A stretch of 26,097 nt of DNA from a virus. A program made the position numbers and the translations under genes. The stretch lies in UHGV virus genome UHGV-0386553. One strand, 5' to 3'. Below are positions 20,299 through 26,097 of this stretch, piece after piece. Positions within the stretch are counted from its first letter, which is position 1; every line of letters begins with the position of its first letter. The notes beneath the pieces were generated by a model that saw nothing but the letters and a program-made list of their open reading frames with translations, searched no databases and was not told the origin of the DNA.

Positions 20299-20505
20299 TT
20301 ACTGACCAAGCAGCGTTTTACCGCTGGTATTAGCGGTTGATGTGTCGCCCTGAGAACCGGTAAGCAGCGTAGAACTACGACCAGCAGCAGCGCGACGGCG
20401 ACGTGTTTCTTCGTCGCGGGCATCAACAACGGCGGCATCCTGCTCCTGTGGTGCTGCCTGAACTTCTGGTGTTGCAGGCACTGATGGTGAGCTACCCATG
20501 CACAT
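20299..20505 (-). CDS. Small low-complexity ORF (68 aa) upstream of the portal gene; uncertain
   Basis: Start context CGGAGTCATTGAtATG duplicates the portal start context CGGAGTCATTGAaATG. Ala/Arg/Thr-rich product. Overlaps another frame (20286..20525) that looks less protein-like. Confidence 0.3.
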   Translation of the reverse strand: MCMGSSPSVPATPEVQAAPQEQDAAVVDARDEETRRRRAAAGRSSTLLTGSQGDTSTANTSGKTLLGQ

Positions 20506-20594
20506 ATCAATGACTCCGTACGCAATTAAATTATTACCAATTTAACGACATATGATTTATTTATCGTAGATAGTTGACATTTAATGCACGAATT

Positions 20595-20611
20595 ATTACC
20601 CTTCAGGTAAG
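20595..20611. promoter_or_regulatory. Operator-like inverted repeat, copy 4 (ATTACC-CTTCA-GGTAAG)
   Basis: 16 nt downstream of a consensus -35 TTGACA (20574-20579); faces the rightward tRNA / Gp49-like unit. Confidence 0.5.
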
Positions 20612-20864
20612 TAAATAGTTCATTCCGGTTATTAACCTGACTGGCTTGTCGTTAAATTGAACAGGTGGAGTGAGCTTTTATTTTGAGCAGTACGGCGTAT
20701 GGCACATGCGACGATAGCGGTCTGGATACGTTTAAGGGGCACCCTCCCTTGCTCGGGCAAACGAACCAGGTAGCCGGAATGTGCAAGTCGAGCGGTTTTA
20801 TTCCGCGCACGGGGATTCACCATCCCGGCGATTTGGTGTGACGCCTCGGAAGAGACGAGGGTAC

Positions 20865-20932
20865 AACGCTGAGAGCATTTATGGAGCCGCGACAAAGTGT
20901 GGCGCCTTAACAGGCTAAGTGCTCTCAGCGTT
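20865..20932 (+). other. 13-bp perfect inverted repeat (AACGCTGAGAGCA ... TGCTCTCAGCGTT) forming a long stem-loop abutting the tRNA 5' end
   Basis: Arms at 20865-20877 and 20920-20932 with a 42-nt loop; the tRNA starts at 20934. Possible precursor-processing structure or small RNA. Confidence 0.4.
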
Positions 20933-20933
20933 G

Positions 20934-21009
20934 TGGCATTAGCTCAGTTGGACAGAGCAACCGCCTTCTAAGAGGTTGGTCGCAGGTTCGAATCCTGCAT
21001 GCCACGCCA
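20934..21009 (+). tRNA. tRNA-Arg (anticodon UCU, reads AGA)
   Basis: Manual cloverleaf: acceptor GTGGCAT/ATGCCAC, D-arm GCTC-AGTTGGACA-GAGC, anticodon loop CTTCTAA (U33, anticodon TCT, A37), T-arm GCAGG-TTCGAAT-CCTGC, discriminator G, encoded CCA. One G-A mismatch in the anticodon stem. Resembles E. coli argU. Confidence 0.8.
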
Positions 21010-21052
21010 GAATCACGCCTAAGGACCGTGATGCCAGAAGTTCCAGGTGCTT

Positions 21053-21096
21053 GGCGGTGATGGTTTCCCTTGAAGGACTATCACCGCCCTTTTTAC
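21053..21096 (+). terminator. Intrinsic terminator downstream of the tRNA
   Basis: GGCGGTGAT ... ATCACCGCC 9-bp stem with an 18-nt loop, followed by CTTTTTAC. Confidence 0.5.
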
Positions 21097-21172
21097 AGCA
21101 GGACGCCATTGCGATGACTTCATGCTGTAAACCCGTACAGACACGGAAGGCATAACTCATTGCTTCCAGTTC

Positions 21173-21197
21173 GCCCGGTTCGCCGGGCATTTTTTTA
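21173..21197 (+). terminator. Intrinsic terminator (UUCG tetraloop)
   Basis: GCCCGG-TTCG-CCGGGC followed by ATTTTTTTA; ends 10 nt before the RBS of the Gp49-like gene. Confidence 0.65.
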
Positions 21198-21207
21198 AGG
21201 TGAGATT

Positions 21208-21564
21208 ATGAACGACCAGCAAATCGAAAAAGAAATCGTTGAGAAAGGCAAAACCGCTCCGCGAGTTACGCCTCAATATATCGAAAGCATCATTCTTGAA
21301 GAGCATTTCTTTACTGCTTATGACGGCATTCGTGCTGCCAATATGGGCGTTGGCGATTCATGGACAGCGCATAAATCTACAGACCTCCTGACTTTCTGCG
21401 TACTGGTGCTGAAGAATGGCTTCACCGTCACCGGAGAGAGTGCCTGTGCAAGCCCGGAAAACTTTGATGCAGAAATTGGTCGGAAGATTGCCCGGCAGAA
21501 TGCTGTAAACAAAATCTGGATGCTTGAAGGTTACTTGCTGAAGCAGAAGTTAAGCGAGCAATAA
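21208..21564 (+). CDS. Gp49-like protein (phage N4 gp49 / Sf6 gene 66 family), 118 aa
   Basis: AAGGTGAG RBS; product contains LTFCVLVLKNGFTVTGESACASPENFDAEIGRKIA...KIWMLEGYLL, which matches my recollection of this family. Opposite strand to the structural genes. Confidence 0.55.
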   Translation: MNDQQIEKEIVEKGKTAPRVTPQYIESIILEEHFFTAYDGIRAANMGVGDSWTAHKSTDLLTFCVLVLKNGFTVTGESACASPENFDAEIGRKIARQNAVNKIWMLEGYLLKQKLSEQ

Positions 21565-21568
21565 CACC

Positions 21569-21580
21569 GTGACATGTCAC
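21569..21580. repeat. 12-bp perfect palindrome GTGACATGTCAC, copy 1
   Basis: Seen directly; an identical 14-nt core CGTGACATGTCACA recurs at about 23832-23845. Confidence 0.5.
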
Positions 21581-21584
21581 AAAC

Positions 21585-21612
21585 AGCCAGCCGATGAGCT
21601 GGCTTTGTTTTA
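21585..21612 (+). terminator. Rho-independent terminator after the Gp49-like gene
   Basis: AGCCAGC-CGATGA-GCTGGCT followed by TTGTTTTA. Confidence 0.7.
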
Positions 21613-21654
21613 TCCTCACCAGAGGATATCTCCGTCATTATCCCCGCTAACGGA

Positions 21655-23130
21655 TTAAGCATAGGGATCGTAATCTGTAATGGTCTTGCCTTGCTGGTTC
21701 TGCTGCCCGGGAATTCGCAGGCGCTTTGACACCGGGAAAGCAAACGTCAGCAGTAGCGCATCGCCTTTACCAGGCGAACGCCCAAGCCGCTCCTTGATAT
21801 CTTCCTTCGGTTCGATAACGATTTTACCGTCCACTCGAACTTTGTACTCTGCCGCCGACAGGTCGTCTGCTGTTTCCTGGTCATCCAGCATGCCGCCAAG
21901 CCTCAGCCATGTCTTGCATGAATTGAACATCTCCCCACGCTTGTTGAGCATCTGCGGGTCAGTAGACGCGCCACCGAACGGAACAAGTTGCCATGTACGA
22001 CCCCAGCCGTCACCGATTGACTTCAGCCCGGTACCGTAACCGAAGTCGATGAACACCGCGTCAGCCTGATACTGGTCTTCAAAGTCAGCGATACGCTTCG
22101 CCATAATCAGATCGTCGGTAGTCTTGTTGCCAGTCCACAGCACCTTACTGTGTAGCCCCTGCCGCAGGTATATCACAGCGTCATCAACGCCTGAATATGC
22201 CGGGTCAACACCGATTATCACCGGAGCATGCGCCACCTGCGCAGCGGTTACCACCCGTTTCATTGCCTCATCAGTAAGACCTGTAGGGATAAACTGCAAT
22301 TCAGATGCATCAGGGAATATGCCACGCACACGGATTTTAACGAAGTCGCTGTCTTCCCCGTAGTCATCAACCCATTTCTGCAACTGCTGTTTGTTAGTGC
22401 CTTCCACCGTCCGGCTGTCAATCTGCGCAGTTTTCCAGCGGTGTTTATATTTGCGGAAACATTCACGGAATCGCCCGGTATTACGCGTCGGGTTTCCGAA
22501 CGCCACCCAGATAATCTCAGTGTCTTCGTCCGTTAGCGCACCTTCGGCAACTTCCCACACCAGATCCGCAATGTTCGACGCTTCATCGAATACCACGATG
22601 ATGCGTTTGCGCTCGTTGTGTAGTCCGGCGAATGCCTCAGTGTTGTGCTCAGACCAGGGGATTGCGTCAGCTCGCCACCGCTTGTCGTGCCCAGGATCAT
22701 TGCTGTACATCGCGGTAGCGGTACAGGTAAACCAGTCTTTCGTGATAGCAAGGTTCGACCACTTGATAATTTCCGGCCAGGTCTTCGTTCGTAGCTGGTT
22801 GTCGGTGTTGGCGGTCACCACGACCTTACAATCCTCGCAAGTGGACATGCCCCAGTTGATCAGCATTGAGATGAATGCGGATTTACCAATACCGTGACCA
22901 GAAGCGCGTGCCAGCATAAGCGGCTGATAGCGCGTCTCTGGATTCTGCAGGTGATCACGTATCTCTCGGAACGCATCAGCCTGCCACTGACGTGGACCGG
23001 TGGCATGTGCCAGTTCAGTCCCCTCTTCCCCCCACGGGAACGCATAGAGGGCATAGCCAAGCGGATCGTGAGTGAACCCTGCAATATCCTCGATCAACTG
23101 CTCTTCAGGAGATAACGCTGCATCTGTCAC
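21655..23130 (-). CDS. Terminase large subunit (491 aa)
   Basis: Follows the small-subunit gene with a 4-nt overlap; size; Walker-A-like segment ARASGHGIGKSAF; C-terminal nuclease-like region with acidic residues. Confidence 0.8.
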   Translation of the reverse strand: MTDAALSPEEQLIEDIAGFTHDPLGYALYAFPWGEEGTELAHATGPRQWQADAFREIRDHLQNPETRYQPLMLARASGHGIGKSAFISMLINWGMSTCEDCKVVVTANTDNQLRTKTWPEIIKWSNLAITKDWFTCTATAMYSNDPGHDKRWRADAIPWSEHNTEAFAGLHNERKRIIVVFDEASNIADLVWEVAEGALTDEDTEIIWVAFGNPTRNTGRFRECFRKYKHRWKTAQIDSRTVEGTNKQQLQKWVDDYGEDSDFVKIRVRGIFPDASELQFIPTGLTDEAMKRVVTAAQVAHAPVIIGVDPAYSGVDDAVIYLRQGLHSKVLWTGNKTTDDLIMAKRIADFEDQYQADAVFIDFGYGTGLKSIGDGWGRTWQLVPFGGASTDPQMLNKRGEMFNSCKTWLRLGGMLDDQETADDLSAAEYKVRVDGKIVIEPKEDIKERLGRSPGKGDALLLTFAFPVSKRLRIPGQQNQQGKTITDYDPYA

Positions 23131-25260: not shown

Positions 25261-25560
25261 TCACATCACCCTGAATCCGTTGCATTTACGTAAGAAATCG
25301 CAGATATAGCCCTTCATTTTTTCATGCCAATCTCGATCATTCCCATTGCACCAACCATCAGGTGGAGTCCAGTTTTCTATCAGAGCAGCCATTTTCTTTG
25401 CTTTCGCCGGAGTAGCTGTTGCGGTATCGCAGTAATGACGAGTGTCAACCAACGCATCCATACCATCGATATCAAGTACGCAAAACCATGTGTGATTCGG
25501 CATTTCAACAGATGGTATTTGTTGCCCACGTCGACGTTTATCAATAAGACATACAGTCAC
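25261..25560 (-). CDS. Small hypothetical phage protein (99 aa)
   Basis: ORF coupled to neighbours in the same leftward operon (ATGA-type overlap at 25557-25560). Confidence 0.4.
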   Translation of the reverse strand: MTVCLIDKRRRGQQIPSVEMPNHTWFCVLDIDGMDALVDTRHYCDTATATPAKAKKMAALIENWTPPDGWCNGNDRDWHEKMKGYICDFLRKCNGFRVM

Positions 25561-26097
25561 TGGTTGCCTCCTTTGCGAAGCTGTTCAGCAATACTTACGC
25601 ATATCTCTGCGCCTCTAATCAGCCCCGGAACGTTCTTGTTTGGCCCAACTTCACCATCAACAAAATCAATCATCGCGTTACGAGCCATATCCACGCCCTG
25701 CGCCCGTACTTCAGCCAGGAAAGCATCGGTGGCTGGAGTTTCGCTGTGGTGCAGGGCATCGTTGATAATCATTGCAGCAACTCCGGCCTGCCCTGCATCC
25801 GTGACCGACACATGCTCAAGAGTTACAGCCATTGCATGTTTCAGCCCAGCATTCTCCGCCGCCAGCGCTGAAAAGTTCTCGTGTGCCAACTTAACAGCCG
25901 CATCAGCCTGCTTAATTGACTCAATCGCTTTCTGTTGGTCTTCGGCCAGCGCATTAGCACGCACCAGTTGCACTTCCAGTTGCGTTGCCAAATCGCTGAT
26001 CAGCTTTGCCACACTACGCATATCAACGGCGCCACATTCTGCTTTCAGTTCCGAAGCCATCTCATGCCCGGCGGAAGCAAAGAAAATGGCTGCTCTG
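25557..26097 (-). CDS. Ead/Ea22-like coiled-coil protein, possibly N-terminally truncated by the window edge
   Basis: Track ORF 25557..26060 starts at a Met, but the frame stays open upstream to the window end (...RAAIFFASAGHE-MASELK), so the true start is uncertain. Confidence 0.4.
   Translation of the reverse strand, partial: RAAIFFASAGHEMASELKAECGAVDMRSVAKLISDLATQLEVQLVRANALAEDQQKAIESIKQADAAVKLAHENFSALAAENAGLKHAMAVTLEHVSVTDAGQAGVAAMIINDALHHSETPATDAFLAEVRAQGVDMARNAMIDFVDGEVGPNKNVPGLIRGAEICVSIAEQLRKGGNQ

Follow-up and report, generated by a model that had tools for sequence, protein, structure and literature searches.

The 26,097-nucleotide (nt) stretch of DNA analyzed here (hereafter the window), from UHGV virus genome UHGV-0386553, is a phiV10/epsilon15-like (Uetakevirus) prophage of 26 kb; the region is 92-98% identical to phage phiV10, to the O157 typing phages 9 and 10 and to other Uetakeviruses (epsilon15-like podoviruses). 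These phages share the gene order portal, small epsilon15-gp03-like gene, rightward insert and large terminase, and it is the rightward insert, in particular an RNA encoded within it, that is the subject of this report. We are highly confident that positions 20574-21610 form a repressor-controlled early transcription unit of the prophage, filling an accessory slot that has the portal-side genes on one side and the gene for the large terminase on the other, and that the core of its leader belongs to an unannotated RNA family placed closely behind early repressor-controlled promoters by temperate enterobacterial phages, among them Uetakeviruses, SfV/cdtI-type lambdoid phages without N and P1-like phage-plasmids. 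The unit consists, in order, of a promoter with its operator, a hairpin (H), a pseudoknotted core of ~170 nt, a clamp stem (P7), a tRNA-Arg(UCU) gene, two intrinsic terminators (T1 and T2) and an open reading frame (ORF) of the gp49/gene-66 family. A first-pass annotation of the same DNA had proposed a unit that runs rightward under an operator and comprises a structured leader, a tRNA-Arg(UCU) gene and two terminators, all of which we located. It had also considered a position between terminase and portal to be unusual for such a tRNA, but this gap is the normal site for this tRNA in the genus; typing phages 9 and 10, SPN9TCW and SPC32H/N, among others, have it annotated there.

Promoter and operator of the unit

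The early promoter was read from the sequence on the + strand (20574-20602) and comprises a -35 element TTGACA (20574-20579), a 17-nt spacer and a weak -10 element TACCCT (20597-20602), which agrees with the consensus at only three of six positions. Because the -10 element is weak, a strict consensus scan lists no promoter in 20300-21700. The layout TTGACA-N17-TACCTT is kept upstream of the core in dozens of Uetakevirus loci. Overlapping the -10 element is the palindrome TTACC-N5-GGTAA (20596-20610), so that the pairing of a TTGACA promoter with an operator that had been noted earlier was borne out. In the window this motif occurs seven times with <=1 mismatch (at 788, 2196, 2321, 3361, 20596, 23723 and 23741), as against 0.35 copies expected, and no shuffled sequence reached seven; the copies are scattered around the prophage in the style of P1, and other copies precede the isrK/C4 immunity RNAs and further early units. 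Given these seven copies, one of them just ahead of the isrK/C4 pair, the motif behaves as the operator of the phage repressor.

The operators at 788, 2321 and 20596 also share an AACCACATAkG-like motif, placed a few tens of nt further upstream, that could serve as another regulatory site. The isrK Hfq-binding RNA (2372-2448, 71 bits) and the C4 antisense RNA (2467-2554, 84 bits) lie on the + strand just behind the operator at 2321-2335, and as judged from these matches the tandem makes up, within a Uetakevirus prophage, an immI module of the P1 type. Phage cdtI has this pair of RNAs as well (L004:277-465).

A conserved pseudoknotted RNA in the leader

The leader measures about 325 nt from its predicted start (~20609) to the tRNA, close to the figure of about 330 nt given in the first-pass annotation. 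A search with the 4227 models of Rfam gave no match over 20600-20932, even at E<=10, and at E<=0.5 nothing matched over the core or the H hairpins in the corresponding loci of phages P1, cdtI and LLS and of a lambdoid locus (L047); at gathering and permissive thresholds, tRNA, C4 and isrK were the only families found across the window and these four loci. In a sensitive BLAST search with the leader, temperate phages that are unrelated matched 20692-20935 with 70-82% identity. The conserved core spans 20691-20865 (+ strand) and gives a covariance-model hit of 136.5 bits.

An alignment of 34 core sequences showed block-like conservation, in which the invariant runs GGCACAUG, AGCGGUC, a 19-mer, GGCG and GGAAGAG are separated by hypervariable, indel-bearing hairpins. 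All elements of the structure are read from the + strand. The first helix, P1 (20693-20700/20706-20713), has the form CGGCRUAU-GGCAC-AUGYGCCG, with the loop GGCAC, and is followed by P2 (20721-20724/20767-20770, UCYG/CRGG), which closes a variable domain. The invariant 19-mer GGTAGCCGGAATGTGCAAG occupies 20769-20787. Beyond it are P3 (20792-20795/20803-20806), a variable hairpin that was left out of the pair scoring, and P4 (20812-20815/20823-20826), a helix of 4 bp with the 7-nt loop YUCACCA. The CACC of that loop (20818-20821) pairs with a downstream GGUG (20835-20838) in a pseudoknot, PK2, and the final helix, P6 (20844-20848/20856-20860), reads CCUCG-GAAGAGA-CGAGG. A second candidate pseudoknot, PK1, would join GCAC in the P1 loop to GUGC in the 19-mer.

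The helices were set by hand and then scored: a single-sequence fold was uninformative (z = +0.62), and the RNAalifold consensus mixed P1 with a long-range alternative. In the alignment of 34 sequences (A2), 93.8% of cells were paired versus 85.8% in shuffled alignments, 11 pairs were changed on both sides, none of 500 shuffles was as good and slid controls paired 25-48% of cells. PK2 covaries, with CACC/GGUG replaced by AACC/GGUU in five sequences, and the PK1 candidate shows no variation in the alignment. A covariance model built from the helices detected 51 loci at 117-160 bits, and in the alignment of these 51 sequences (A3), which was fitted to the model and so leans towards the structure, 97.4% of cells were paired and 11 of 21 pairs were compensatory. 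Covariation therefore supports four nested helices and the pseudoknot PK2 as features of the predicted RNA. Conserved G-U pairs are frequent and are valid on the + strand alone, which argues that the RNA is read from that strand. No second copy of the core that would correspond to putR was found by the covariance model (R1) in the window, in the whole cdtI genome or in the searched regions of HK022 and LLS.

Distribution of the core

The core is found in phages of several kinds. In P1 and P7 it lies between trnI and ban; in cdtI, mEp460, Ayreon and Stx2c and Stx2a phages it directly follows the cI repressor gene on the same strand; and it occurs in other Uetakeviruses that lack the tRNA. A search with the invariant 19-mer identified at least 120 viral contigs and 23 genuine Enterobacterales genome loci. 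The core was present in 1834 of 5426 complete E. coli genomes (about a third), each with as many as four copies, and was also found in 590 plasmids, most of which have a size like that of P1; among the matches listed for E. coli genomes and plasmids there was no feature annotated under the core. A second motif pattern designed for more diverged relatives returned only single-base variants of the 19-mer and chance hits. Four matches in non-enterobacterial genomes (L136, L140, L146 and L156) were chance matches in coding DNA and were rejected by the covariance model. One contig carries, ~650 nt downstream of an intact copy and with an oppositely oriented ORF between the two, a second and mutated core (L027:3995-4154, - strand) in which both the 19-mer and AGCGGUC are altered, and which looks like a scar left where two leader types recombined.

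At 154 oriented loci, tRNAs were sought within 600 nt of the core. A tRNA-Arg(UCU) gene lies ~163-228 nt downstream at 29 of the 154, a tRNA-Ile2(CAU) gene of the P1 type ends ~96 nt upstream of the 19-mer, that is ~15 nt before the core, at 18, and a tRNA-Ile(AAU) gene lies ~530 nt downstream at two; the remaining 105 have no tRNA within that distance. Every tRNA near the core shares its strand. Among the 154 loci, consistent linkage of the core to a protein gene was not found. Because 105 of them lack a nearby tRNA, the core is, on its distribution across sequenced genomes, an independent and widespread RNA module and not a tRNA-specific leader. Full-text literature searches returned no description of the core RNA, and one P1 transcriptome preprint is silent on the trnI-ban spacer. 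We infer that the core represents a new RNA family, most plausibly a new variant of the phage early-leader regulatory RNAs.

Stems flanking the core

On its 3' side the core is bordered by P7 (20863-20934, + strand; inverted repeat I17), whose 19-nt arms (20863-20881 and 20916-20934) are 95% complementary, enclose a 34-nt variable insert and take nucleotides 1-2 of the tRNA into their last two pairs. The first-pass annotation had reported a perfect 13-bp stem abutting the tRNA; a stem does abut the tRNA, but its arms are longer than was supposed. The base of P7, CAACGAUGAGAGCA / UGCUCUCAGCGUUG(UGG), is kept in more than 70 distinct contexts, and the apical insert, of 10-237 nt, shows no relationship from one phage to another. 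At the sixth P7 pair the relatives have an A.G mismatch, and the window alone has C-G (20869, A->C), which makes the stem perfect there. The 3' arm of P7 reads UGCUCUC or UGCUCUUU and is boxA-like, and at many loci a small hairpin, GCGCAGGCUGAUGCGC, follows ~12 nt later. The P7 inserts of L008/L010/L013 and of L104 contain T-arm-like hairpins (GGTTCAATTCC and GGTTCGATTCC) and acceptor-like stems that were not called by ARAGORN, and these may be tRNA remnants or tRNA-like modules.

On the 5' side lies H (20613-20680, + strand), which in the window is a diverged copy with the inner motif GUCGUUAAAU and is paired in the minimum-free-energy fold. This hairpin is homologous to the P7 stem, takes the form CAACaUGAAAGCGCAC...GUGCGCUUCCAGgUGUG, often with the same inner motif, and is found upstream of the core in Uetakeviruses; its consensus has a 13-bp base stem with six compensatory pairs across nine homologues. 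H hairpins are also repeated before terminators in lambdoid early-left leaders. Those of the form CAACrUGAAAGCGCAC...GUGCGCUUCCAGUUGUGG alternate with intrinsic terminators in LLS (L177:5700-6400, - strand), in L047 (7240-7560) and in L054, where they lie in the long untranslated early-left leaders of lambdoid phages without N, LLS included. In these leaders the 3' arm of H is boxA-like and is often followed by GCGCAGGCUGAUGCGC. The H hairpins match no Rfam family. They could be the actual antitermination signals.

The tRNA gene and codon usage

ARAGORN identified a single tRNA in the window, a tRNA-Arg(tct) at 20933-21009 on the + strand, and with the Rfam tRNA model (RF00005) it reached 63.3 bits, where the gathering score is 29, so that both programs accept the cloverleaf that had been proposed from the sequence. 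The gene encodes its CCA end. The records of O157 typing phages 9 and 10, of SPN9TCW, of SPC32H/N and of RefSeq prophages show a tRNA-Arg(UCU) at this locus; the gene is thus already known and is ordinary for this kind of prophage. What sets the window copy apart, as seen by comparison of variants, is its anticodon stem, which reads GAGGT as against GCGGT in 28 other copies of the lineage. The change C40->A (window 20972) produces a G30.A40 mismatch in that stem, and the window tRNA does not have all four stems paired as its sister copies do. C40->A in the tRNA and A->C at 20869 in P7 are both found only in this prophage, and to judge from the sequences they could be either early decay or a compensating adaptation. 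In phiV10 the annotated coding sequence (CDS) p04 lies antisense over the tRNA (its counterpart in the window is an 83-amino-acid ORF, 20939-21190, - strand) and is very likely an artefact.

The first-pass annotation had suggested that a tRNA for the rare AGA codon may boost translation of AGA-rich cargo or late genes, a suggestion for which the codon counts are weak evidence. Among 26 plausible ORFs of the window AGA and AGG occur at 6.4 and 5.7 per 1000 codons, mostly in tail, injection and accessory genes, and the capsid, portal and terminase genes contain almost none. The host was represented by 16 genes (5515 codons) of a strain with this prophage type, part of them near genomic islands, and in that sample AGA and AGG occur at 5.3 and 3.1 per 1000, giving window-versus-host odds ratios of 1.2 for AGA (p = 0.42) and 1.9 for AGG (p = 0.03). 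Across the E. coli genome AGA and AGG are found at roughly 2 and 1 per 1000 codons. As these genome-wide figures are lower than those of the small host sample, some enrichment of AGA/AGG in the window is likely, but it is modest.

Genomic context of the core

In nearly all contexts the core lies ~5-120 nt downstream of a strong, operator-bearing promoter. In cdtI one finds, after the stop codon of cI, a terminator, a TTGACA promoter, two operators that match oR and then the core, and the site of the core is the pL leader; in Ayreon the phage's own annotation places a terminator and a promoter at the same position. At three loci (L047, L039 and L153) the pL/oL region is 85-88% identical to that of HK022, the homology ends at putL, and the core is found there instead. 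An intrinsic terminator was detected in 69% of the 510-nt intervals downstream of the core versus 27% of same-strand control intervals, counts that come from related loci and are not independent. Several of the leaders extend for 0.5-1 kb before the first early ORF, and within them lie terminators and, in addition, inserted genes of convergent orientation. The records of cdtI, Ayreon and mEp460 show no N gene, a statement about the annotations, as N homologues were not searched exhaustively. A put-like RNA mechanism has been suggested by Casjens, Smith and colleagues for LLS, a phage that lacks N and has a related early-left operon (PMC12315714).

In the window the tRNA is followed on the + strand by T1 (21053-21094; hairpin 21053-21088), a terminator call with a 14-bp stem and then CTTTTT that scored -22.8 kcal/mol in a separate scan, and by T2 (21173-21196; hairpin 21173-21188), which was found in two terminator scans and is separated by 12 nt from the start codon of the ORF that follows. 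A T-run follows each hairpin, and the two terminators that had been reported after the tRNA are thus both in place. The accessory ORF (21208-21564, + strand) belongs to the Phage_gp49_66 family (N4 gp49 / Sf6 gene 66; Pfam PF13876, E = 1.7e-34), and the consensus scan of 20300-21700, which also passes over the TTGACA promoter, did not recognize a promoter of its own. A further terminator call, T3 (21585-21610, + strand), ends the rightward unit before the convergent large-terminase gene.

Other phages carry other genes in this slot. An ORF with a Tad2-like (Thoeris anti-defence 2) domain comes right after the leader in a Klebsiella Uetakevirus-like phage (L009:2511-3032) and in a P1-like element (L072, +358 to +933 from the 19-mer). 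In view of the gp49-like ORF of the window and the Tad2-like proteins of sister phages, the gene content suggests that the position after the leader is a site for early anti-defence or accessory cargo. A prophage of the same type with a 100% identical core is present in E. coli TCM3e1 (L181; NZ_CP066806.1 1425981-1466687), between guaA and yfgI, where the slot after the tRNA holds a different ORF (272 amino acids). At the right end of the window there is a 30-nt inverted repeat (25381-25410 / 26068-26097) that is 97% complementary, with its arms 657 nt apart.

Possible functions of the core

Our preferred reading, which we advance tentatively and with less than even confidence, is that the core works in cis as an antiterminator of the put type, within an early accessory unit. 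We favor it because the core takes the place of putL in HK022-like pL phages and terminators are enriched downstream of it, and because the ORF of the window follows two terminators without a recognizable promoter and N is not annotated in the carriers. In this scheme the core would fold on emerging from RNA polymerase and the folded RNA would affect the elongation complex in cis, in the manner of the put RNA of HK022, the two folds being unrelated; the polymerase would then pass the terminators that stand between leader and downstream cargo, here T1 and T2 before the gp49-like gene. The tRNA would be a passenger that is released by RNase P, and the long P7 stem, and H, would serve as a processing or insulating boundary. 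It is possible, though if anything slightly more doubtful, that the core constitutes a second, structurally unrelated class of RNA-only antiterminator, and that this explains N-independent early transcription in lambdoid phages of the SfV/cdtI type.

The put RNA of HK022 makes RNA polymerase resistant to terminators in cis, via the zinc-binding domain of the beta-prime subunit. Like put, the core is found directly behind a repressor-controlled early promoter and before terminators in lambdoid phages that have no annotated N. However, put is a factor-independent RNA antiterminator of ~70 nt with two stem-loops (PMC9378689), whereas the core has ~170 nt with four supported nested helices, the variable P3 and a supported pseudoknot. 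Moreover, there is no similarity to the core, either in sequence or by the covariance model R1, in the HK022 pL region, where putL was read directly, and put is paired (L and R) whereas the core is single-copy. The core is thus closest to HK022 put in its placement but fails put's defining structure, and we do not file it as a member of the put family.

The core also occupies the same place in the early-left leader as the nut sites of lambda, and the 3' arm of P7 is boxA-like with a small hairpin after it in many loci. Unlike in nut, P7 holds the boxA-like run in base pairs and some variants do not keep it, N is not annotated in the carriers examined, and in the window the tRNA stands where the small hairpin of the nut-like loci would be. 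A further likeness is to the C4 RNA of P1/P7 and the CI RNA of P4, which are RNase P-processed and, like the core, are structured leader RNAs of repressor-controlled operons of the same phages, matured in their case from a longer transcript; the Rfam models for C4, isrK and c4-a1b1, however, do not match the core, and no complementary target sites were identified.

Several observations weigh against an antiterminator. The core of P1 adjoins trnI and is ~2.3 kb away from Pban, with several genes preceding it, which is unlike a promoter-proximal loader, and each phage has one copy of the core with no putR-like partner. LLS, which lacks N and has a related early-left operon, has no core yet keeps H hairpins and terminators, so RNA-based antitermination in that phage cannot depend on the core. 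The Uetakevirus unit is very short, with the tRNA and no more than one or two small ORFs, so that processive antitermination would bring only a modest gain, and the terminator enrichment carries the non-independence noted above. Finally, likely processing sites (the tRNA and the long P7 stem) flank the core, and release of a free RNA fits this arrangement equally well.

It is nearly as likely, though on its own merits still doubtful, that the core is a processed, trans-acting early RNA, which would be cut out by tRNA-processing enzymes and by cleavage at P7/H and act as a stable decoy, sponge or inhibitor of a host or defence factor. Such an RNA would account for all contexts at least as simply as an antiterminator, including that of P1, in which the core starts 15 nt after trnI. 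It would also suit the placement of the core between a tRNA or H hairpin and, at its other end, the conserved P7 of 17-19 bp, the loci (L033, L046 and L089) in which a hairpin and a T-rich stretch after the core are followed by a convergent gene, and the presence in the same slot of accessory or anti-defence cargo (Tad2-like in two phage types, gp49-like here). That LLS manages without the core is likewise what would be expected of optional cargo. What such a model does not predict, if the RNA is purely cargo, is the occurrence of the core at the place of putL in HK022-type pL regions or the enrichment of terminators downstream. We give a small chance to the idea that the core is an RNA countermeasure of the phage, a stable aptamer or decoy, freed early in infection, that would neutralize a host immune component or signalling molecule and be neither a leader nor an antiterminator; on this view it would occupy the early slot that holds Tad2-like sponge proteins in sister phages.

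A new self-cleaving ribozyme, which would cut the early transcript and, for example, free the adjacent tRNA or define RNA ends, is a little less probable again. The invariant junctions, supported pseudoknot and hypervariable peripheral stems are an architecture typical of ribozymes, and a same-strand tRNA adjoins the core at 49 of the 154 loci; on the other hand no Rfam ribozyme family matches the core, its ~170 nt exceed most small self-cleaving classes, no cleavage-site signature can be named and a nearby tRNA is lacking at 105 of the 154. Marginally behind this in our estimation is a riboswitch-like sensor of a metabolite, a second messenger or tRNA that would gate early transcription and link host physiology to phage development. 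The core is a conserved, aptamer-like element in a 5' leader upstream of terminators, its internal ACCA-containing loop pairs with GGUG (PK2), and it has a free GGUAG that we take to be similar to motifs that bind tRNA 3' ends. Nevertheless, neither a terminator nor a ribosome-binding site overlaps the 3' part of the core as an expression platform would, the nearest terminator is ~190 nt (window) or 200-330 nt (lambdoid phages) beyond P6 with other modules between, and the downstream genes are unrelated to one another.

The reading implied by the first-pass annotation, in which an ordinary precursor leader would serve only the expression or processing of the rare-AGA tRNA, we consider very unlikely, as it is largely refuted by the distribution of the core, which is kept without a tRNA at 105 of 154 loci. 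The tRNA is real and directly abuts the leader, and AGA and AGG are somewhat commoner in tail and accessory genes, but tRNA processing does not explain purifying selection on 19 invariant unpaired bases, the enrichment of AGA over the host sample is not significant and the tRNA copy of the window carries a destabilizing mutation. Phage genes for rare-codon tRNAs do offer a parallel in P1, which places tRNAs in the same (ban) operon as the core; the tRNA of the window differs from such genes elsewhere in its unique G30.A40 and in being an optional passenger of the leader.

Least likely of all is that the conservation is due to a DNA-level site or to a minus-strand protein gene, for although a minus-strand ORF of at least 60 amino acids is intact at 79 of the 154 loci and small CDSs are annotated here in some GenBank records, the spacing between invariant motifs falls into all three classes modulo 3 (58, 27 and 23 sequences), an open frame on the minus strand is missing from 28 of the 108 distinct cores, and variation is concentrated in paired positions with compensatory changes and G-U pairs that are valid on the + strand only. 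The corresponding ORF of the window (87 amino acids, 20632-20895) was rejected as a gene, its frame not being preserved across homologues and its product having no Pfam match. The small CDSs over the core in mEp460 and Ayreon, and the ORFs of 83 and 87 amino acids, are probably annotation artefacts, and the same is probably true of several hypothetical CDSs over the core region in GenBank.

Significance

A conserved RNA with an invariant 19-nt junction and a covarying pseudoknot thus occurs in P1 and in roughly one in three complete genomes of E. coli, and Rfam nevertheless contains no family for it. If the core is an antiterminator, it would be a concrete candidate for what drives the early-left operon's transcription in lambdoid phages that lack N, and would join HK022 put as an independent, second solution made of RNA. 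Should the core instead be a free early RNA, host takeover or anti-defence would gain a new participant. The core makes the question of N-independent early transcription testable, and on either reading P1, phiV10 or Stx2c phages can be used to test it.

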